Virus genome (UHGV): UHGV-0135757
Direction: 5' to 3' (one strand)
DNA: 10,798 bases
From: a virus
The first letter of the stretch is position 1. Each line of letters starts with the position of its first letter. Positions 205-10,798 of the stretch are shown in pieces. A program made the position numbers and the translations under genes. The notes beneath the pieces were generated by a model. That model did not search any database and had not been told where the DNA came from. It saw only the letters and a program-made list of their open reading frames with translations.

Positions 205-1323
205 TTAAATAACCAACTTAACCCATTCCTGACCTCGAGTATCGTTATAGCGATCGGTGGTTGCCTGGACTTTATGTCCTAGTAATGTTTTTGTATCGAT
301 ACCCTGTGCACGGTACAGCCGTTCTGATAGAGAGCGTTGTTCATGAAATGTTGGCGGAGTTTTTCCTGCTGGTGGAATTATCCCAGCCAGATCCCGTGCT
401 TTGGCAAAGTAGTCGCTCAGGTTGTCTTTACTCATCGGCTTCGGTTGTTTCTGGTGCCGACTATGGATTAGATATGGACTTAATATTCTGTCTCGGCACC
501 CATCAATAACTTCTTTTAACGTTATCCCAATGGCATCACAGCGTAGTGTAAGCGGTAACGCCAGACGCATTCCGGTTTTTCCCTGGGTGATATGCAAGTG
601 TTCGTTCCACACATCTGAAAAACGCATGTGGCAAATGTCATCACGGCGCTGACCAGTAACAATCGCAAGAAGCATTGCGTTACGGATAAAGTGTTTTTCA
701 GGCGTTGCATTGTAAATTTTTTGCCAGTCTTCCATGGTGAGCCTGGCTCTGGTTACTTTAGGGATCGGTTTACGGGTAGCCTCCGGAGGATTCCATCCAG
801 GAGGAACTTCCCCTGCATGCTGTGCTTCTTTATAAATATCAACCCATAATCCACGATTTACTCTCGCTGTGCTGACCATGTCTTTATCCAGCCACTCATC
901 CAGTATTAATGCAAAGTCTCTTACTTCCAGTTCTTTCAATGGGTGGTTTCCCAGACGGGAAACCAGGTATGCAGCCATTCGAGTTTTTTCTTTGTGAGTT
1001 GTAGCTGCAATATCTCCATTTTTCAGTCGTGTGTCCTGTATTTTCAGATATCGATCAACCCATGCCTTTAATCTGATACCCCGACGTTTTGTTGCTGACG
1101 GACTTTCATCAATTTTGCGCATGAAATATTCAGCTTCTGCTGCAGCTATTCGCTGATTGGCTGTGGAAGCGATTTTTTCTGCCTTACCTTTGTCTGTTCC
1201 GAGTCCGTGAAATTTTCCAGTCACAGGATTTTTATACTGGTAGTAAACTCTGCCAGTTCTGCGATCAAACTTTTCGTAAAGACCGGCTACGTCAGTGCTG
1301 TTTTTTCGTGGCCTCGGTGACAT
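205..1323 (-). CDS. int: Phage tyrosine integrase (site-specific recombinase)
   Basis: 372-aa ORF. C-terminus carries the tyrosine-recombinase signature H-x-x-R followed by the catalytic Tyr (HEQRSLSERLY). ATG at 1323 is preceded by AAGGAG about 10 nt upstream on the minus strand. Sits at the end of the module, overlapping an excisionase-like gene, as in lambda. Confidence 0.85.
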   Translation of the reverse strand: MSPRPRKNSTDVAGLYEKFDRRTGRVYYQYKNPVTGKFHGLGTDKGKAEKIASTANQRIAAAEAEYFMRKIDESPSATKRRGIRLKAWVDRYLKIQDTRLKNGDIAATTHKEKTRMAAYLVSRLGNHPLKELEVRDFALILDEWLDKDMVSTARVNRGLWVDIYKEAQHAGEVPPGWNPPEATRKPIPKVTRARLTMEDWQKIYNATPEKHFIRNAMLLAIVTGQRRDDICHMRFSDVWNEHLHITQGKTGMRLALPLTLRCDAIGITLKEVIDGCRDRILSPYLIHSRHQKQPKPMSKDNLSDYFAKARDLAGIIPPAGKTPPTFHEQRSLSERLYRAQGIDTKTLLGHKVQATTDRYNDTRGQEWVKLVI

Positions 1324-1622: not shown

Positions 1623-4064
1623 TTAAAAATCAGCCTGACTCGGGATCAGTTTTTGCCAGATAACTGAAACGTATTTTGCCTGGTAACGGGCGTCATCAAG
1701 TGCATTATGGCGCTCACCTTCGAATGGAATAGCCGTTCTGGCATCGAAGTCTATGGCTTTCCCCAGCTCAACGATTGTGCGTACATCGCGATCGTTGTAG
1801 TAACGCCACGGGCAGGGGATCCCCTGCCGTTCGTATGAACGGCGCAAAATCGTGTTGTCGAAGTTGGCTCCATTTCCCCAGACCTGAACAAAAAATTCAC
1901 CGGAGTTTTCGTCGATAAATTCCCGCAATTGTAACAGTGCATCATCTAACGGGATTTCATCGGTCATAATGGCAGATTGCGCTTCGCGTGATTGCTTAAG
2001 CCACCATTTAATGGTGTCCCGATCAATGACTCCGCCAGCAGTTTCCAGATCGATAGTCTTACTAAATTCCGGTCCCATATCTCCGGTTTGCGGATCGAAA
2101 AATATTGCACCTATTGAGATGATCGGGGCATCAGGATTTTTTCCCATGGTTTCAAGGTCGATCATTAGATGGTCACACGTCCTGCTGGTGGATGTGATTT
2201 CTTGATGACCGTTCACCTTAATTGAGTGATCTGCCGTCTCGCCAGTTTCATTATCGCTATCGTGATGCTGATTGCCGCCAGTGTTCTCCTTGTGTGGATG
2301 TTCAGCGCCTTCCATTTCCTCCGGATCATCTTCCTGAACTTCAGGCTGATTCTCTCCATCGAATATTTCCAGGCATGTTGCGTCACCCATCACCGCACCA
2401 CAATCAGGGCAGTTGCCGCCACCGCTCTGACCGCAGGCGGTGCAGACTTTTTCCACTTCCTGTTGCGCCACTGGTTCGGATTGTTTCGTTTCTGGCTCGT
2501 TTTGTAACGCATTTGGGCTGTTTTGTTCCGCTTTTTGGTCGTTCCGTTCCGATTCATGCTGGTTCTGGTTCACAGAATCGCGAGTCTGGATCCCTTTGAC
2601 CCATTTCGGATCATTCGGGTCGCTAATCCCCTCAACAAATTCACCACGCGATACAGCAAGTAACTTATCGGCGTCAGGCTGGCTGATATTGGCTGCCTGC
2701 ATAATTTTGTTTACTTCGTCAGCGGTGACTTTTACTTGGTTAGCGGAACTCACCTGCGACTGAGCATCCAGCGACTGCGCGTTCTGGCCATGTTCAGTTG
2801 TATCCGGTTCCATTGTTTCAGTTGTTGCCTGTTCACCTGCCATTGCGTCAGATGGTTGTGGTTTTTCTTCTTCTGTTTCACGCTCAGTAACCACCTCGCG
2901 GTTAATTTCTTCCAGGATATCTTTTTCCGGCGTATGCCGGGCAGCTGTGAGAGTTTCCTTGCTGGGGTTCTCGTGATCAGTTTCCGTCAAATAGGCGTTG
3001 ATATACCCCTGAAGGCGTCCCGGGTAGTGATAAAATTCAGGGTGTGCGCTTCGGATAAGTGCAAAAATAGCGGCGCGGGAATAGTCCAGAATACCCGGGG
3101 TTGCACGAAGTGCTGCGGACCATTCTTTGAACGGATTTTCTTTGTTCAGAACTACTTCTTTTGCGCGACGATAAACGCTGCCCGGAATTTCATAAATATT
3201 AAAATCCATCGGAAGTGTGGCTGCTGCAATCTCCACATCCAGTGTGTCGAGGGTGTGTACTAAATTCGGATTGCGATCGGTTTTGTTCCCACCGCCAGCA
3301 TTAGCACCGGAAGCCGTGCGGGTGATGCGTGAAACACGATTTCCTTTCATCCACTCTTTTGTCAGCAGACCCCGATCAGTGTAGTCAGCGTCCAGGTATG
3401 CTTCGAAAAAAGCAGTTATTAGTCCCAGGTCTGAATTACCAGGATTAGGGAAAACTTTGTCAGTGTCACGAACCAGTTTGTGGAGGTCGCGAATCTCCAG
3501 CGAGTCGAGCAGACTGGTTTTATGCGAAATAGCCAGGGCAGTAACAGCCGGTAGTTCTTCAGCCCGTGCAATGTGTAATGCCTGGAGTTCGTCGCGTGAA
3601 ACGTGCGTTACTGGTTTTTCGCTGCCGTGTTGAGCAAGCCAACGAATGGGCAGTTCCTGACCGGAGACAGGCAGAAGCATGCTCTCCTCAATCTCAGTCA
3701 TGTCTTCGCCGTTGATGTTGGTATTGTCAGTGCTGGCTGGTTTGTCCTGAACAGAGGGGGAAGGGCCGATAAATGTCATTGTGATGCCATCTTTCCCGCC
3801 TTTTTCATAGCGGTTGCAGAATTCAGTATCAAACACGCCTTCTGGCGGAAGGTCGTCAACAACGGGCAAATTGACGCGGACGGGTTTTTTAAAGTCGTCT
3901 TCATCATAATCGTTGTCATCCATTGCGGTAATGCAGCGGGAGATTGCAACAGATAATTTTTTTGCTGTAGTCCAGTAAAAACCACCTTTAATTCCTAGGC
4001 GTTTTCTTACTTTGTCATTTTTTGCTTCGCAATATAGTGCAAATTCTTCTTTATCAGTGCTCAT
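1623..4064 (-). CDS. Large prophage protein: RecE-like N-terminal region, a Cys-cluster (zinc-ribbon-like) motif, and a C-terminal DnaQ-type DEDDh 3'-5' exonuclease domain
   Basis: 813-aa ORF. C-terminal ~190 aa show the three DEDDh motifs: Exo I MIDLETMG, Exo [14 protein letters not shown], Exo [12 protein letters not shown]. The middle is acidic and Q-rich with [24 protein letters not shown]. The N-terminal ~550 aa resemble the non-nuclease N-terminal part of Rac RecE as I recall it. Start ATG at 4064 has GAGG about 10 nt upstream. Confidence 0.8.
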
Positions 4065-4534: not shown

Positions 4535-5189
4535 TATCGCGCCCTCAACAATGAGTTTTGTGATGCGGTGCCTGGTGCCTCCAGGTGACGTTAACCAGTT
4601 AACAATTAACGCCGGATACAGAGAATCCACCCATAACACTGTTTTTGGTTTTAACTGTTCCGCGTGCGCTTAGCCGCATTCACCGCATCACAAAATTCAC
4701 TTTAAAAAGGGCGGCAGAGCAGTCACGGAGTAAAACTGATACCGCCAAACGTCACCAGAAAATTGATAACAGAGGGCGTTGCAGCGGGGTTGTCACTTAA
4801 GCGTATGGTCAACCTGACAATCCGGTGTCCTCAACGGGGAAAGAGTAACCCCGCCATACTTACCGCCGCGCCATTTCGCGGATTACCACAACGCTGAGAG
4901 CACTTAGCCAGTTACGGCACCACACTTTGTCGCGGTTCCATAAATGCCCTCATCGTTGCACCCTGGTCTCTTCCCAGGCGTCAAACCGGATCGCCGCGCT
5001 GGTTAGGCGTCTTATCAGCATCATCATTGACTTGCACATTCCGGCTACCTGGTTTGTTTGCCCGAGCAAGGAGTGGATTGTCCCCTTTAACGTCCCCAGA
5101 CCGCTAACGACGCATGTGCCATACGCCGTGTTACAACCAAATTTTGTTAGTACCTTGTTTGTTGGTCTGGAAAGAAAGATAAAATGAAG

Positions 5190-5283: not shown

Positions 5284-5976
5284 TTAATTGTGTCGTTTAA
5301 GGGTTTGTGACTGGCTGATTAAGACCTTTCCAAAGACCATAAACCGGTGTTCATTTTCGCTGGTAATTCCCCATTCACGGTAAATCTGGTTATCAGAAAT
5401 CACCAGCAGTTTGTCAGGAATCATTTGAAGTCTTTTAACGTATATTTTGTCATCAAAACCAAAGACATATATACCATCACCATCAAACTGATTGATGCTG
5501 ACATCAACGAAGATGAGATCTCCTGGCTCAATGGTTGGACACATACTGTCCCCACGAACGTTGATAACTTTAATGTGATTGGCTGGTCGTCCGCCAAACA
5601 TCGATACAGCATTATCAGTTCTGTATTCAATGGCATGAATCACATCAATGACATCACCGCCCTGGATAAGGCCATTTCCCGCACTGGCACTGACATCCAG
5701 CATTTCAATACGGAATACATCCTTCACCTGCGCAACATCCTCATTATTACTGTTTTTATATACAGTATTACTTTTGAGGGCAGAGGTAAAGAGATCAGCA
5801 ATATCAACACCTAAGCTCCTGGCAATATTACTCAGGGCTTGTTCAGTGAATTGTTTCTGCTTACCTGTTTCCAGGCGCGAGATATTCGCCGCATCCACTC
5901 CTATTGCTTCAGCGAGATCGGCGATTTTCATGTTCTTCGCCTGGCGAAGTTGTCTGACTCGGTTTCCTATGTTCAT
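5284..5976 (-). CDS. CI-type prophage repressor (N-terminal XRE-family HTH, C-terminal S24 LexA-like autopeptidase domain)
   Basis: 230-aa ORF. N-terminus MNIGNRVRQLRQAKNMKIADLAEAIGVDAANISRLETG is a classic HTH. C-terminus has the S24 serine motif VRGDSM and a downstream Lys (YVKRL), with an Ala-Gly pair in the linker (SASAGNG) as a possible RecA-stimulated cleavage site. Divergent from a Cro-like gene across an operator-rich intergenic region. Confidence 0.9.
   Translation of the reverse strand: MNIGNRVRQLRQAKNMKIADLAEAIGVDAANISRLETGKQKQFTEQALSNIARSLGVDIADLFTSALKSNTVYKNSNNEDVAQVKDVFRIEMLDVSASAGNGLIQGGDVIDVIHAIEYRTDNAVSMFGGRPANHIKVINVRGDSMCPTIEPGDLIFVDVSINQFDGDGIYVFGFDDKIYVKRLQMIPDKLLVISDNQIYREWGITSENEHRFMVFGKVLISQSQTLKRHN
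5748..5767. promoter_or_regulatory. Near-consensus LexA (SOS) box inside the repressor gene's linker-coding region
   Basis: Seen directly: TACTGTTTTTATATACAGTA matches the E. coli LexA-box consensus TACTGT(AT)4ACAGTA at 18 of 20 positions, with CTGT-N8-ACAG intact. It encodes residues NTVYKNS between the HTH and peptidase domains. Confidence 0.45.
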
Positions 5977-6073: not shown

Positions 6074-6334
6074 ATGCAATCACCATTACGAAATGTGCGT
6101 AAGGCGCACGGGTTTACTTTGCAGCATGTTGCTGCGGGCGTTCAGGTTAATCCAGCAACGCTGAGTCGTATTGAGAGACTGGAACAAATTCCATCTATCG
6201 ATCTTGCAGAGCGTCTGGCCAATTTTTTTAAGGGTGAAATCAGCGAAATGCAGATTCTTTATCCGGCACGTTTTCAATCTAGCCAAAACCAGAATGGGTT
6301 TAAACCACAGGAACAGGAGGTGAACCGTGGGTAA
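6074..6334 (+). CDS. Cro-like small HTH transcriptional regulator (XRE family)
   Basis: 86-aa ORF with GGAGG 4 nt upstream of the ATG. HTH-like segment HGFTLQHVAAGVQVNPATLSRIERLEQIPS. Divergent from the repressor gene. Confidence 0.8.
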   Translation: MQSPLRNVRKAHGFTLQHVAAGVQVNPATLSRIERLEQIPSIDLAERLANFFKGEISEMQILYPARFQSSQNQNGFKPQEQEVNRG

Positions 6335-6884
6335 GCATCACTGGAAAATAGAAAAACAGCCTGAGTGGTACGTGAAAGCTGTCAGAAAAACTATCGCGGC
6401 GTTGCCGGGGGGTTACGCTGAAGCTGCTGAGTGGCTGGATGTAACAGAGAACGCTTTATTCAACCGCCTTCGTGCAGATGGCGATCAGATTTTCCCGCTG
6501 GGATGGGCAATGGTTTTACAGCGTGCTGGTGGCACTCACTTCATTGCTGATGCTGTGGCGCAGTCTGCAAATGGCGTCTTTGTGTCTCTTCCTGACGTCG
6601 AGGATGTGGACAACGCCGATATTAACCAGCGCCTGCTGGAAGTCATTGAACAGATTGGCAGTTATTCCAAACAGATTCGTTCGGCAATCGAAGACGGTGT
6701 GGTGGAACCGCATGAGAAGACAGCAATTAACGACGAGCTGTATCTCTCAATTTCGAAGCTGCAGGAGCATGCAGCACTGGTCTACAAAATCTTTTGCATT
6801 TCAGAAAGTAATGACGCCCGCGAGTGTGCAGCTCCGGGCGTCGTGGCGTCGATTGCTTCTGGTTGTGGAGAAACTAACGCATGA
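6327..6884 (+). CDS. Phage 186 CII-like (CP76-family) lysogeny-establishment regulator
   Basis: 185-aa ORF starting at GTG 6327 with AGGAGG 6 nt upstream, overlapping the cro-like stop. Sits where a cII-type gene is expected. Layout and the segment [35 protein letters not shown] resemble phage 186 CII as I recall it; needs a profile search. Confidence 0.6.
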
Positions 6885-7239
6885 ACAGTTTAACAACACA
6901 CTACCGTCGCTCGCAACTGATTGCGCTTCCTGTACCGGGTGGAAAAGCGAAGGTGGAGTATTGCTATGCAGTGAATGTACCAGGTGACAGGGAAATTGTA
7001 ACCCACAGCTTTGCTGAGTGGGCTGTGGGTGATTTCAACCGGCAGAAGGAGACAGTCCTTTGCGAGAAGTTAACCGCTGGTTCAAAGATCACTACGGAGT
7101 GCCCGTCAGAGTCATTCGTTGGGAGCCGGAAACACAACGGGTTATCTACCTCCGCGAAGGCTATGAGCATGAGTGCTTCAGCCCGCTCGAACAGTTTCGT
7201 CGTAAATTCAGGGAAATAGAGGTCGGTCATGAGCACTAA
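6881..7239 (+). pseudogene. Small hypothetical gene with an apparent frame switch (frame 2 to frame 1 near 7033-7075); possible frameshift pseudogene or sequencing indel
   Basis: ATG 6881 overlaps the previous stop as ATGA. The frame-2 product looks protein-like only to about CEKLTAG (~7075), then turns into a low-complexity Ser-rich tail. Frame 1, open from 7033 to TAA 7237-7239, encodes a protein-like tail ...[56 protein letters not shown] with no in-frame ATG. Confidence 0.4.
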
Positions 7240-8170
7240 ATTAACCGGCTATGTATGGGATGGTTGCGCAGCGTCAGGCATGAAATTATCCAGTGTGGCA
7301 ATTATGGCCCGCCTGGCTGATTTCAGTAATGACGAAGGTGTGTGCTGGCCATCAATTAAAACCATTGCCCGTCAGATTGGCGCGGGGATGAGTACCGTCA
7401 GAACGGCTATCGCACGGCTGGAAGCAGAAGGCTGGTTAACGCGTAAGGCGCGTCGCCAGGGTAACCGCAATGCGTCGAATGTTTATCAGCTTAACGTTGC
7501 GAAGCTTCAGGCTGCGGCTTTTTCTCAACTGTCAGATTCTGACCCGTCAAAATCTGACGCATCAAAATCTGACCCGTCAAAATTTGATGCGTCGAAATCT
7601 GGCAAAAAAGCGGGTTTTCACCCGTCAGAATCTGGCGGGGATCCGTCAGTAAAATCAAAACATGATCCGTCAGATAAAAAAACTTCTCGTCCGGACGCTT
7701 CGCAACCGGACACGCAGAAGGCTGAACAGGATTTTTTAACTCGCCATCCTGATGCGGTTGTATTCAGCCCTAAAAAGCGCCAGTGGGGGACGCAGGATGA
7801 TTTGACCTGCGCACAGTGGCTCTGGAAAAAAATCATCGCCCTGTACGAGCAAGCCGCCGAATGTGACGGCGAGGTGGTTCGTCCCAAAGAACCGAACTGG
7901 ACAGCCTGGGCAAACGAAATTCGCCTGATGTGTGTGCAGGATGGTCGTACTCACAAACAAATCTGCGAGATGTACAGCCGCGTCAGCCGCGATCCGTTCT
8001 GGTGCCGTAACGTGCTCAGCCCGTCGAAGCTGCGGGAAAAATGGGATGAGCTTTCCCTGCGCTTATCGCCGTCCGTCAGCACGTACACCGAAAAACGCGA
8101 AGACCCGTACTTCAAAGCCAGTTACGACAACGTGGACTACAGCCAGATCCCGGCAGGATTCAGGGGGTGA
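7229..8170 (+). CDS. Replication initiation protein (lambda O-like organisation: N-terminal winged-helix DNA-binding domain, repeat-encoded linker, C-terminal domain)
   Basis: 313-aa ORF with GAGG upstream of ATG 7229. The N-terminal HTH (SVAIMARLADFSNDEGVCWPSIKTIARQIGAGMSTVRTAIARLEAEGWL) is typical of phage replication initiators. The linker is encoded by tandem DNA repeats. Position (after cII-like, before nin-like genes) matches lambdoid replication genes. Confidence 0.75.
   Translation: MSTKLTGYVWDGCAASGMKLSSVAIMARLADFSNDEGVCWPSIKTIARQIGAGMSTVRTAIARLEAEGWLTRKARRQGNRNASNVYQLNVAKLQAAAFSQLSDSDPSKSDASKSDPSKFDASKSGKKAGFHPSESGGDPSVKSKHDPSDKKTSRPDASQPDTQKAEQDFLTRHPDAVVFSPKKRQWGTQDDLTCAQWLWKKIIALYEQAAECDGEVVRPKEPNWTAWANEIRLMCVQDGRTHKQICEMYSRVSRDPFWCRNVLSPSKLREKWDELSLRLSPSVSTYTEKREDPYFKASYDNVDYSQIPAGFRG
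7529..7683. repeat. Iteron-like origin array inside the replication initiator gene, followed by an A-tract
   Basis: Seen directly: four tandem 15-bp units at about 7547-7606 (TCAAAATCTGACGCA / TCAAAATCTGACCCG / TCAAAATTTGATGCG / TCGAAATCTGGCAAA), further CCGTCAG cores at 7622, 7643 and 7667, then AAAAAAA at 7674-7682. The 15-bp period gives the peptide repeat SKSDA/SKSDP/SKFDA. By analogy to ori-lambda inside gene O. Confidence 0.6.
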
Positions 8171-8172
8171 TC

Positions 8173-8661
8173 ATGAGTCTTTTGAATGAAGTTCAGAAAT
8201 ACATTGAAGCCCATCCGGGGTGTACTTCCGGAGACATTGCGGATGCTTTTGCAGGTTACTCACGGCAGCGCGTTCTGCAGTCAGCAAGCAAGTTACGTCA
8301 GAGTGGGCGTGTGGCTCACCGTTGTGAAGGAGATACACGCAGACATTTCCCACGCCTGACTGAGAGAGCGCAGGAGCCGGAACCACAACCAGTTCGTGAA
8401 ACCAGACCTGTGCGCAATTTCTATGTCGGCACTAACGATCCCCGGGTGATTTTATGCCTGACCCGCCAGGCTGAAGAACTGGAGTCAAGGGGCTTATACC
8501 GTCGTGCTGCAACCGTGTGGATGGCGGCATTCCGTGAAAGCCACTCCCAGCCAGAACGAAACAATTTTCTGGCACGTCGTGAGCGGTGCTTACGGAAAAG
8601 CAGCAAGCGCGCTGCATCGGGTGAAGAGTGGTATCTGTCAGGGAATTTCGTGGGGGCTTAA
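8173..8661 (+). CDS. PerC-like transcriptional regulator with an N-terminal HTH-like extension
   Basis: ATG 8173 follows GGGGG with a 5-nt spacer, 2 nt after the replication gene stop; the track starts it at GTG 8167. The C-terminal segment AEELESRGLYRRAATVWMAAF resembles the PerC/Pch-family core as I recall it. Confidence 0.6.
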   Translation: MSLLNEVQKYIEAHPGCTSGDIADAFAGYSRQRVLQSASKLRQSGRVAHRCEGDTRRHFPRLTERAQEPEPQPVRETRPVRNFYVGTNDPRVILCLTRQAEELESRGLYRRAATVWMAAFRESHSQPERNNFLARRERCLRKSSKRAASGEEWYLSGNFVGA

Positions 8662-9314
8662 TGAGTAATAAATATTGCCAGGCGCTGGTGGAACTGCGGA
8701 ACAAACCAGCCCATGAACTGAAGGAAGTGGGCGATCAGTGGCGCACGCCGGATAACATTTTCTGGGGAATTAACACCCTGTTTGGCCCGTTTGTTCTGGA
8801 TCTGTTCACTGACGGTGATAACGCCAAATGTGCCGCGTATTACACGGCGGAAGACAACGCGCTGGCGCATGACTGGTCAGAACGTCTTGCGGAGCTTAAA
8901 GGTGCTGCCTTTGGTAATCCCCCATACAGTCGCGCCAGTCAGCATGAGGGGCAATACATCACCGGCATGCGTTACATCATGAAACATGCCAGTGCCATGC
9001 GTGATAAAGGCGGGCGCTATGTTTTCCTGATCAAAGCTGCCACCAGCGAAGTGTGGTGGCCGGAAGATGCAGATCATATTGCTTTTATTCGCGGGCGTAT
9101 TGGTTTTGAACTGCCTGCCTGGTTTATCCCGAAAGATGAGAAGCAGGTGCCGACAGGCGCTTTCTTCGCTGGTGCTATTGCTGTTTTCGACAAGACCTGG
9201 AAGGGACCGGCAATCAGCTACATCGGGCGCGATGAACTTGAGGCATGTGGTGAGGCCTTTCTGGCGCAGGTTCGCCAGCAGGCGGAAAAACTGGTCAGGG
9301 AGATGGCGGCATGA
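8661..9314 (+). CDS. Phage Dam-type DNA N6-adenine methyltransferase (orphan, no partner endonuclease visible)
   Basis: ATG 8661 overlaps the upstream stop (TAATG). Catalytic motif FGNPPYS is present. Size (~217 aa) and location are typical of nin-region phage Dam-family methyltransferases. Confidence 0.8.
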   Translation: MSNKYCQALVELRNKPAHELKEVGDQWRTPDNIFWGINTLFGPFVLDLFTDGDNAKCAAYYTAEDNALAHDWSERLAELKGAAFGNPPYSRASQHEGQYITGMRYIMKHASAMRDKGGRYVFLIKAATSEVWWPEDADHIAFIRGRIGFELPAWFIPKDEKQVPTGAFFAGAIAVFDKTWKGPAISYIGRDELEACGEAFLAQVRQQAEKLVREMAA

Positions 9315-9637
9315 CGACGTTAACTCAATGCCAGCAGCAGGTGCTGGATATGCTGATTTCTTATCAGAAAGAACGTGGTTTCCCGCCAACCAATCAGGAG
9401 GTGGCAACCATGCTGGGATACCGTTCAGTGAATGCAGCGGTGGAGCATCTTCGCGCACTGGAGAAAAAAGGTGTCATCACGATAAAGCGTGGCGTGGCCC
9501 GGGGGATAACGCTTCATACCGCGGTGAAGGACGACGACAGCGAGGCGGTCGGGATTATCCGCTCACTGCTTGCCGGTGAGGAAAACGCCAGGCTGCGTGC
9601 AGCCCACTGGTTACATGAGAGGGGCCTGAAAGTATGA
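9311..9637 (+). CDS. LexA N-terminal DNA-binding-domain-like protein lacking the S24 autocleavage domain
   Basis: 108-aa ORF; ATG 9311 overlaps the Dam stop as ATGA. Residues 4-66 (LTQCQQQVLDMLISYQKERGFPPTNQEVATMLGYRSVNAAVEHLRALEKKGVITIKRGVARGITL) align colinearly with the E. coli LexA winged-HTH domain, including the recognition helix (SVNAAVEHLRAL vs SPNAAEEHLKAL). The ~40-aa C-terminal tail has no Ala-Gly site, Ser or Lys dyad. Confidence 0.8.
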   Translation: MTTLTQCQQQVLDMLISYQKERGFPPTNQEVATMLGYRSVNAAVEHLRALEKKGVITIKRGVARGITLHTAVKDDDSEAVGIIRSLLAGEENARLRAAHWLHERGLKV

Positions 9638-10029
9638 AGCTGATCCTGCCTTTTCCGCCCAGCGTGAACACGTACTGGCGACACCCCAACAAAGGGGCGT
9701 TTGCAGGTAAGAGCCTGATAAGCGCGGCGGGGCGAAAATTCCAGAGCGCGGCGTGCGCAGCAATAGTTGAGCAGTTACGTCGTCTGCCGAAACCAACGTC
9801 GGCACCTGCTTCAGTGGAGATCGTGTTGTTTCCTCCGGATAACCGGATCCGCGATCTGGACAACTATAACAAGGCGCTGTTTGACGCCCTGACCCACGCG
9901 GGTGTGTGGGAAGACGACAGTCAGGTGAAAAGAATGCTGGTGGAGTGGGGACCGGTTATCCCGGAAGGGAAGGTTGAGATCACTATCAGTAAGTACGAAA
10001 AAGCGAGTTGCAAATTAGCAACTCGGTAA
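9634..10029 (+). CDS. rusA: RusA-type Holliday junction resolvase
   Basis: 131-aa ORF; ATG overlaps the upstream stop as ATGA. Conserved acidic core DLDNYNKALFDALTHAGVWEDDSQV matches the RusA catalytic region. Typical nin-region gene. Confidence 0.9.
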   Translation: MKLILPFPPSVNTYWRHPNKGAFAGKSLISAAGRKFQSAACAAIVEQLRRLPKPTSAPASVEIVLFPPDNRIRDLDNYNKALFDALTHAGVWEDDSQVKRMLVEWGPVIPEGKVEITISKYEKASCKLATR

Positions 10030-10074
10030 CGGAATTGAGCAACACCCTAAATTTGGGTATTACCTCGTTAAAGA

Positions 10075-10128
10075 TACTGTATTTATGAACAGTGTATCCT
10101 TGATAACTATTAAAAATCGCAGTAAGTT
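10075..10128 (+). promoter_or_regulatory. LexA (SOS) box adjacent to a candidate promoter upstream of the antirepressor-like gene
   Basis: Seen directly: TACTGTATTTATGAACAGTG (10075-10094) has CTGT-N8-ACAG intact and matches the consensus at 16 of 20 positions. Candidate promoter hexamers TTGATA (10100-10105), 17-bp spacer, TAAGTT (10123-10128); alternative -35 TGAACA inside the box. Confidence 0.55.
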
Positions 10129-10191
10129 CATCCTGCATCAACGAAAAGGGAGTGCAGTCCCGCTCGTGGATAAAAATTTGTGGAGAAACCA

Positions 10192-10798
10192 ATGAATCAG
10201 TTGCTTGTAATTGATGGCGTTTCTGTGCGCCAGTACTTCGAATCTAACTACTGTCTTAACGACCTTCAGAAAGCTGCTCTTCTTGCCGCTGGTGAGAATC
10301 GCTCCTCCCGTTCGCTGGAAGTTCACGAGTTTATGCGTCGTCCTGAAACGAAGGCTCTTGTGGAATTATTGGAAGAAGAAACTACGGGAGATTCCCGTAG
10401 TATTCCTGTCATCACCATTCAGGGGCGCAATGGTGGGACGTATGTCTGTAAAGAGCTGGTCTATGCATATGCAATGTGGATCAGCCCGGCATTCAGCTTA
10501 AAAGTGATACGTACTTTTGATGCGCTTCATAATTCATCACCAGAAGAAACCACATCCGACAAAATTAAATCCGGGGTCATTCTGCTTGAATCAGCAGCAA
10601 AGACTCTAAATCTGTCAAACTCCTCGAAACTTGGTGCATACCAGAAATTATCAAAGGTAGCTGGTCTTCCTGAACTTATGCCGATCTATGCCATTGATGC
10701 ACCTGCTGATGCGCCAGATGGTTCAAGCCGCCCTACGCTGTCGCTGAGTGCACTGCTGAAGCAGTATGGTATCCGCCTGACGGCTAATCAGGCATATC
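10192..10798 (+). CDS. KilA-N domain / antirepressor-like protein (Roi/Ant-like), 3'-truncated by the window end
   Basis: Open frame from ATG 10192 (GGAG 6 nt upstream) to the window end with no stop; absent from the ORF track for that reason. N-terminal region (IPVITIQGRNGGTYVCKELVYAYAMWISPAFSLKVIRTFDAL) has the KilA-N/Bro-N-type signature. It follows rusA, where lambdoid phages often carry roi/ant-type genes. Confidence 0.65.
   Translation, partial: MNQLLVIDGVSVRQYFESNYCLNDLQKAALLAAGENRSSRSLEVHEFMRRPETKALVELLEEETTGDSRSIPVITIQGRNGGTYVCKELVYAYAMWISPAFSLKVIRTFDALHNSSPEETTSDKIKSGVILLESAAKTLNLSNSSKLGAYQKLSKVAGLPELMPIYAIDAPADAPDGSSRPTLSLSALLKQYGIRLTANQAY

Follow-up and report, generated by a model that had tools for sequence, protein, structure and literature searches.

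A predicted LexA operator upstream of the kilA-N gene in a lambdoid prophage of the SfIV/SfII/PhiR49_1 group

Introduction

Prophage loci controlled by LexA are already well known. In the Gifsy prophages, genes required for induction are driven by a LexA box that lies downstream of the replication genes and has a palindrome before it (PMC3121763). Such LexA-antirepressor systems have three hallmarks (PMC3121763): their promoter is LexA-controlled and lies outside the immunity region, the gene product inactivates the repressor, and this repressor cannot cleave itself. In the Qin prophage of Escherichia coli K-12, the protein Rem acts as an antirepressor of DicA (PMC10448788). Here we describe one more locus of this kind, found in the virus genome UHGV-0135757, whose analyzed stretch of 10,798 nucleotides (nt) is called the window below. 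The window (10.8 kb) comes from a lambdoid prophage of the SfIV/SfII/PhiR49_1 group, of which it covers the early region, and at its right end it shares 99% identity with Escherichia phage PhiR49_1 and Shigella phage SfIV. The element in question is a LexA (SOS) box, TACTGTATTTATGAACAGTG, in the gap between the Holliday-junction resolvase gene rusA and a gene for a KilA-N domain protein, kilA-N. An earlier note on this DNA had proposed that the box guards an antirepressor-like gene and forms a LexA-gated induction switch.

Results

A LexA box outside the immunity region precedes kilA-N

The earlier note had described a LexA box with an intact CTGT-N8-ACAG core about 100 nt upstream of the KilA-N gene. 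This was borne out: the core lies at 10077-10092 with zero mismatches, and 97 nt separate the box from the kilA-N start codon. The start position given before was one base off, as the frame from 10193 hits stop codons and the ATG is at 10192. The site is located ~4 kb to the right of cI and cro, after the replication genes and thus outside the immunity region. The bare pattern CTGT-N8-ACAG is expected 0.13 times per window and was found twice, and two or more copies occurred in 3 of 200 shuffled windows; because of these counts a single copy is only weakly significant. The consensus of gammaproteobacterial LexA boxes is taCTGtatatatataCAGta (PMC7556043). Scored with an approximate matrix, TACTGTATTTATGAACAGTG reached 21.7 bits, compared to 13.0-26.9 bits (median 20.3) for the boxes used for training; 300 shuffles of the window yielded no site with such a score. 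Neither the complete PhiR49_1 genome (45 kb) nor that of SfIV (40 kb) has any other strong box. These results indicate that 10075-10094 is a real match to the LexA box and that the predicted operator probably works.

The exact 20-mer occurred once elsewhere, in a viral contig with unrelated context, where it directly follows the box-like sequence CACTGGTTATATTTACAGTA and ends 9 nt before an ATG; this arrangement suggests a tandem SOS operator that belongs to another gene. Phage SfV contains a strong LexA box of its own (TACTGTAAAAATAAACAGTG, 22.6 bits, 34170-34189) where orf48 begins; this gene lies downstream of Q and encodes a DNA methyltransferase.

The box recurs in unalignable intergenic regions and is part of a cassette

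Among phage records, the intergenic region together with the first ~170 codons of this kilA-N allele was found only in SfIV, the near-identical VIT_AJPSC, and PhiR49_1. The module was present in 187 of 5,426 complete E. coli genomes, in all of them on the chromosome, and its carriers include O104:H4, O157:H7, O103:H2, and O111:H8 strains in addition to the Shigella serotype-converting phage SfIV. The same flanking context was shared by 106 copies, of which 101 had an identical box, four (SfIV-type) ended in CAGTA and thereby shifted towards the consensus, and one was disrupted. Searches with the exact box and with its flanks returned almost only identical copies, which made them unusable for footprinting.

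A set of kilA-N homologues with one genome per species (43 loci) was more divergent. Eleven boxes of at least 12 bits were present in its 257 kb, and four of these 11 fell into the 150-nt zone upstream of the kilA-N ATG, at distances of 75-137 nt and within intergenic sequence that otherwise could not be aligned with that of the window. They belong to Citrobacter freundii (AACTGTTCAAACATACAGGT, 17.8 bits), Erwinia (GATTGTATATTTATACAGTC, 17.1 bits), Serratia (AGTTGTACGTTTATACAGTG, 14.8 bits), and Pantoea brenneri (ACCTGGTTACATGACCAGTA, 14.7 bits). At 8 of the 11 loci with a gap of ~100 nt or more, the best score was among the uppermost 1% of the background windows (n = 1,882); Pantoea alvi, a Symbiopectobacterium, and Serratia marcescens account for the remaining three long-gap loci, which have no box. 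Counted by genus beyond the window, the box was clear in four, degenerate in four, and absent in three. Lineages with a decayed box include Rahnella (9.8 bits), Kosakonia (10.6 bits), and Erwinia persicina (8.0 bits). Upstream of the Cedecea kilA-N gene we noticed a perfect 12-bp palindrome, TGGTTATAACCA, ~75-55 nt before the gene and between hexamers that, read by eye, resemble -35 and -10 elements; a regulator other than LexA may use this palindrome as its operator.

The phages SfV, SfII, Stx2a_1447, and PhiR63_1 encode a KilA-N protein with 71% identity, and their rusA-kilA-N gap is only 19 nt long and contains no box, which indicates that the box is part of an insertable cassette. The cassette is ~140 nt long, consists of the operator plus a weak candidate promoter, and is placed between rusA and a conserved leader hairpin, which the four box-less phages retain together with the ribosome-binding site.

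A candidate promoter and a covarying leader hairpin follow the box

A relaxed scan identified TTGATA (10100-10105), a 17-nt spacer, and TAAGTT (10123-10128) as the best candidate promoter, which matches the consensus in 8 of 12 positions, including three key positions of the -10 hexamer, its T, A, and last T. The candidate -35 hexamer begins 5 nt past the LexA box, and transcription would start near 10135. The earlier note had the box overlapping or abutting a candidate promoter. A stricter consensus scan of the window left the TTGATA/TAAGTT pair below its threshold and unlisted. The layout is the same in Citrobacter, and both there and in the window the box ends 4-5 nt before the -35 hexamer. 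In Erwinia (TTGCCA-17-TATATT) and Pantoea (GTTACA-17-TATAGT), good promoters are overlapped by the box.

Every leader contained a hexaloop (G/U)UGCAG on a stem of 4-5 bp, followed by GTGGAGAA and then the ATG. When ten distinct sequences were aligned on the loop, 92% of the cells were paired and all five pairs showed compensatory changes; none of 500 shuffles equalled this pairing, and slid registers were 30-64% paired. The chance expectation for the hairpin is ~0.025 per 10.8 kb. An Rfam search of 9950-10300 gave no match at E values up to 10. In the box-less SfV type the hairpin overlaps the end of rusA, and its presence there suggests that the cassette was inserted upstream of an existing leader element. 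A second copy of the hairpin is located in the early-left operon just upstream of a yfdP-like gene and beside the same motif, GTGGAGAAAC, on the minus strand of SfV (24635-24654), SfIV (27241-27260), and PhiR49_1 (4000-4015).

The palindrome at the end of rusA is terminator-like on the minus strand only, and as its plus strand lacks a U-run, read-through from PR should also enter kilA-N during lytic growth. We considered a LexA-controlled small RNA on the minus strand that would end at the 10025-10004 hairpin and found no minus-strand promoter for it; a hidden small antirepressor reading frame is not present in the 97 nt between the box and kilA-N either.

The favored reading: a CI-independent SOS entry into kilA-N and downstream genes

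The order LexA-domain gene (see below), rusA, gap, kilA-N, DUF968, and Q is kept across five genera. In the near-identical phages a DUF968/HNH gene begins 2-8 nt 3' of kilA-N and is followed by the gene of the Q antiterminator, and no strong plus-strand terminator was detected between kilA-N and Q of PhiR49_1. We favor, with modest confidence, the view that 10075-10094 is the working LexA operator of an SOS-derepressible entry, independent of CI, into kilA-N, the DUF968/HNH gene, and possibly Q. The sequences directly give the box and its quality, its recurrence at homologous loci, the makeup of the cassette, the gene order, and the domain content; LexA binding, the promoter with its start site, the read-through to Q, and the role of KilA-N are the predicted parts of this view. 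In a lysogen, host LexA would keep the weak promoter in the nin region shut. After DNA damage, RecA-stimulated self-cleavage of LexA would allow transcription to start near 10135, regardless of whether CI occupies the main operators, and the transcripts would then read kilA-N, the adjacent DUF968/HNH gene, and probably Q.

The CI repressor of the window bears on how much such a promoter would contribute to induction. In accordance with the earlier note, which had described a repressor with an S24 domain and an Ala-Gly site, CI matches Peptidase_S24 (6e-19) and has the candidate cleavage site Ala99-Gly100 and the catalytic dyad Ser144/Lys181. By its sequence it is a repressor of the lambda CI type with a complete self-cleavage apparatus. 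As CI is self-cleavable, the kilA-N promoter would be a second, parallel SOS input and not the sole trigger of induction: it would open alongside CI self-cleavage and advance or reinforce the expression of lytic genes.

Several observations weigh against the favored reading. The candidate promoter of the window is weak, and with it the center of the box would lie near -50, upstream of the -35 hexamer, which is unusual for repression by LexA. The symmetrised scoring matrix, derived from 24 E. coli SOS boxes, is approximate, and so are the scores. The near-invariance of the box in E. coli says little on selection, because its flanks are equally invariant. The boxes of Kluyvera (GGGTGTATGCATGAACAGTG, 7.7 bits) and Leclercia (11.7 bits) are decayed, and upstream of the kilA-N genes of Cedecea and Citrobacter farmeri the box is absent. 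Finally, transcripts could be halted before they reach Q, as two weak hairpins that resemble terminators are present where the DUF968 gene of PhiR49_1 ends.

A second LexA box lies within cI

A second, stronger LexA box is located inside the cI coding sequence; the earlier note did not mention it, although it is of direct relevance to the proposed LexA-gated switch. This box, TACTGTTTTTATATACAGTA, reads TACTGTATATAAAAACAGTA on the sense strand of cI; it covers codons 70-76 in the linker between the helix-turn-helix (HTH) and S24 domains, ~210 nt into the coding sequence. It deviates from the 20-bp consensus at two positions, and 200 shuffles gave no match this close. We take TACTGTATATAAAAACAGTA to be identical to the E. 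coli umuDC operator, a high-affinity SOS operator of the umuDC/sbmC type. It also tops the scoring matrix, which is partly circular, as the sequence is in the training set. Unlike the E. coli operators, the box in cI is located within a coding sequence and has no convincing promoter; none was found on either strand.

Within the same cI family, the box is identical in SfII and Stx2a_1447 and present in variant form in mEp460 (TACTGTATGTAAAAACAGTA), Salmonella ST64B (TACTGTATGTAAACACAGTG), and a Klebsiella phage (TACTGTACATATAAACAGTG). The arms are constant, and the changes in the spacer alter the encoded residues (Tyr/Cys/His, Lys/Ile, and Asn/His). Compared with the Klebsiella phage, 17 of 20 positions of the box are identical, against 39-70% identity in the adjacent 20-nt windows and a gene average of 68%. 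Repressors with ~42% identity lack the box. A scan of viral contigs with the CI protein returned only relatives that are at least 98% identical, and the literature on ST64B and mEp460 that we searched does not mention a LexA site inside cI. The box could serve as a block to cI transcription or as a target of the phage-encoded LexA-domain protein described below. It might also belong to an internal promoter from which a C-terminal fragment of CI is made. An internal start for such a fragment, GTG after GAGGA, is conceivable and found no support.

The phage encodes a copy of the LexA DNA-binding domain

The earlier note had correctly recognized a LexA-like gene two genes upstream of kilA-N on the same strand. 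Its 108-amino-acid product matches LexA_DNA_bind (3e-19) and aligns to residues 2-69 of E. coli LexA (7e-16), with 51% identity over residues 1-69. It retains Ser39, Asn41, Ala42, Glu45, His46, Arg64, and Gly65 of LexA, which presumably include the base contacts of the recognition helix and the wing. There was no S24 match, and the score against the LexA equivalog TIGR00498 was 70.8 bits at a cut-off of 110.95. Judged by its sequence, the protein is a copy of the LexA DNA-binding domain only and not a LexA, and since it lacks an S24 domain and remains below the equivalog cut-off, it should not be cleavable through RecA. In E. coli, Shigella, Kluyvera, Cedecea, Leclercia, and Citrobacter alike, the gene precedes kilA-N by two genes, with or without the box. 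Proteins of this type form a phage family with a LexA DNA-binding domain, a tail of ~40 residues, and no S24 domain, always encoded between a methylase gene and rusA. A literature search turned up no experiment on this family.

The two boxes and this protein could be parts of one circuit. The operator within cI might allow LexA or the phage protein to set the level of full-length repressor, e.g., as a roadblock to transcription, the box upstream of kilA-N might open the CI-independent route to kilA-N and Q, and the phage copy of the LexA domain might re-close both once host LexA has been destroyed. Such a three-part arrangement is rather unlikely.

It is unlikely that the operator serves mainly, or also, the phage protein, which would be made from the early right operon and, after the loss of host LexA, re-occupy the boxes at kilA-N, within cI, and in the host SOS regulon. 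During lytic growth it would in this way shut down both the SOS-driven promoter and the SOS response of the host. The identity to LexA, the intact recognition residues, the predicted resistance to RecA, and the invariable position of the gene at every locus examined would fit this assumption. It is also suggestive, albeit in two cases only, that in Kluyvera and Leclercia a diverged recognition helix coincides with a box of the form GTG-N10-CAG instead of CTG-N10-CAG. On the other hand, the gene is equally present in phages without the kilA-N box, such as SfV and Stx2a_1447. Moreover, the isolated N-terminal domain of LexA binds DNA only weakly without the dimerising domain, and the tail of the phage protein, 39 residues long, may not dimerise.

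KilA-N is most likely a DNA-binding regulator

The kilA-N gene runs off the end of the window, and its full length beyond it, which the earlier note had sought, was obtained from SfIV and PhiR49_1 (816 bp, 271 amino acids). KilA-N (PF04383) is the sole Pfam domain, at residues 10-114, with an E value of 7e-16 and 58 bits at a gathering cut-off of 23.8. Membership in the KilA-N/APSES family, to which phage P1 KilA and yeast Mbp1 belong, gives the fold and not the function. In PHROGs, the whole protein was assigned to phrog_129, "transcriptional regulator" (1e-108), its C-terminal 150 residues to the uncharacterised family phrog_6486, and its C-terminal 78 residues to an unannotated family. All of the 120 homologues listed were named "KilA-N domain-containing protein" or had no name, and PADLOC and NCBIfam were uninformative for the KilA-N and DUF968 proteins.

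An AlphaFold2 model of all 271 residues, built from 34 sequences (mean predicted local distance difference test score, 77), resembled an APSES-type DNA-binding domain joined to a C-terminal domain similar to a winged helix. A Foldseek search of the PDB with the full model gave no hit below an E value of 1e-3, and a PDB sequence search with the protein gave one chance match only. According to the model, KilA-N, with two DNA-binding folds, most likely acts as a regulator that binds specific DNA sequences and not as a titrator of the repressor.

The proposal of the earlier note was that kilA-N is antirepressor-like, which would mean that after the loss of LexA the KilA-N protein binds and inactivates CI, providing a second route of induction. 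It has clear precedents in the LexA-gated antirepressors Tum of phage 186, AntC of N15, and GfoA, GftA, and GfhA of the Gifsy prophages (PMC3121763). The position of the locus corresponds as well, as it follows the replication genes and has a palindrome before it, and in the Qin prophage the slot upstream of ydfU (DUF968) and the Q gene is taken by rem, an antirepressor gene. The anti-repressor families phrog_2127 and phrog_63 were in fact matched, weakly, and only when the SfV and Stx2a_1447 alleles were compared, through their N-terminal domain. Beyond this generic domain, no antirepressor homology was found in Pfam, NCBIfam, PDB sequence, and fold searches, and both modelled domains look DNA-binding.

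The repressors that accompany the gene also speak against the proposal. In 54 contigs with enough upstream sequence, the same kilA-N allele and box stood beside a window-type cI in 21, an SfIV-type cI in 15, and neither in 18, i.e., at least three immunity types, and apart from ~39 residues around the catalytic Ser the window-type and SfIV-type repressors are unrelated. The pairing of one allele with unrelated repressors argues against a dedicated antirepressor-repressor pair. Antirepressors of the P22 type are able to act on several repressors, and so the mixed immunity partners would be compatible with an antirepressor. Most members of the KilA-N family, however, have neither a LexA box nor their own promoter and are part of the early right operon, and known LexA-antirepressor systems are paired with short uncleavable repressors, whereas the CI of the window has the Ala-Gly, Ser, and Lys residues required for self-cleavage. 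We thus consider an antirepressor function of KilA-N improbable.

Very unlikely is a decaying relic or chance match with no current role, which would leave kilA-N expressed only via read-through from PR: the weak promoter, the degenerate or lost boxes in several genera, the many relatives that manage without a box, and the one copy of 106 with a disrupted arm could be taken in its favor, but true boxes typically have such a score and shuffles never reached it, at least five intergenic regions that cannot otherwise be aligned contain the box, and the four SfIV-type variants move towards the consensus.

Organization of the window

The features of the window are listed in Table 1. DicF was the sole Rfam match in the whole window. 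Prophage-encoded homologues of PerC, for which a gene is present in the early-right operon, act on host virulence genes in pathogenic E. coli.

Table 1. Features of the 10,798-nt window
Feature	Position	Strand	Basis
Putative integrase	205-1323	-	Reading of the list of open reading frames
813-codon open reading frame, product with long, acidic, low-complexity middle	1623-4064	-	
DicF small RNA, early-left region	4709-4760	-	Rfam RF00039, 76.7 bits
cI-type repressor, HTH and Peptidase_S24	5284-5976	-	Pfam
Second LexA box, inside cI	5748-5767		Pattern and matrix scan
cro-like gene	6074-6334	+	
CII/CP76-like gene	6327-6884	+	
Replication protein gene	7229-8170	+	
PerC-like (PerC-family, YfdN-like) activator gene, early-right operon	8167-8661	+	
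Dam methylase gene	8628-9314	+	
108-amino-acid protein with LexA DNA-binding domain, without S24	9311-9637	+	Pfam
rusA, Holliday-junction resolvase	9634-10029	+	
Palindrome CGAGTTGCAAATTAGCAACTCG, 3' end of rusA, upstream of LexA box	10004-10025		
rusA-kilA-N gap, 162 nt	10030-10191		
LexA (SOS) box TACTGTATTTATGAACAGTG	10075-10094		Matrix, 21.7 bits
Best candidate sigma-70 promoter, TTGATA-17 nt-TAAGTT	10100-10128	+	Relaxed scan
Leader hairpin GGGA-GUGCAG-UCCC (outer stem 10141-10167)	10148-10161	+	Covariation
Conserved motif GTGGAGAA containing the ribosome-binding site GGAG	10180-10187	+	
kilA-N, first 202 of 271 codons, running off the window end	10192-10798	+	Pfam

Discussion

If the promoter upstream of kilA-N works, DNA-damaging antibiotics would switch on a prophage regulator and possibly the late-gene antiterminator while bypassing the CI switch, and the speed and readiness with which these prophages lyse their host would be affected. 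The site also offers a simple test of the KilA-N proteins encoded in nin regions, which are common and unstudied. An operator conserved within the coding sequence of a repressor and a phage LexA mimic acting there would both be new, if they can be confirmed.

The closest described system is the dinI-antirepressor operon of Gifsy-1, -2, and -3 in Salmonella, with the antirepressor genes gfoA, gftA, and gfhA (Lemire et al. 2011, PMC3121763). It likewise has a LexA box and a promoter outside the immunity region that provide an SOS input via host LexA. The Gifsy operon encodes DinI and a small antirepressor, whereas the locus described here encodes a 271-residue KilA-N protein without similarity to these, and the Gifsy repressors are short and uncleavable, in contrast to the CI of the window with its full S24 self-cleavage domain. 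The function of the Gifsy operon was established by genetics; the present locus is known from its sequence. Of the hallmarks of LexA-antirepressor systems, a LexA operator outside the immunity region is thus plausibly present, and an uncleavable repressor is not. The comparison with Tum (p95) of coliphage 186 and AntC of N15 is similar: there, as predicted here, a promoter repressed by host LexA ties the lytic switch to the SOS response, but the proteins are different and have no sequence relation to KilA-N, and their repressors are not RecA-cleavable (PMC3121763 and general knowledge).

With respect to gene order, the nearest counterpart is rem of the Qin prophage (3652-3903 of the Qin stretch), which lies directly before ydfU (DUF968) and a Q-type gene, in the slot taken here by kilA-N. 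Rem has 83 residues and is unrelated in sequence to KilA-N, and a search for a LexA box upstream of rem gave none. Our literature search on KilA-N in connection with an SOS box, an antirepressor, or SfIV found no study of the present module.

The locus adds one example to the known LexA-gated prophage loci, and its unusual traits appear to be the control of a KilA-N regulator, the coexistence with a cleavable repressor, and the nearby phage gene for a LexA domain. Greater originality may lie in the operator within cI and in the leader hairpin. The described systems rely on repressor cleavage or on a LexA-gated antirepressor; the box within cI and the phage gene for a LexA domain suggest SOS wiring beyond both.

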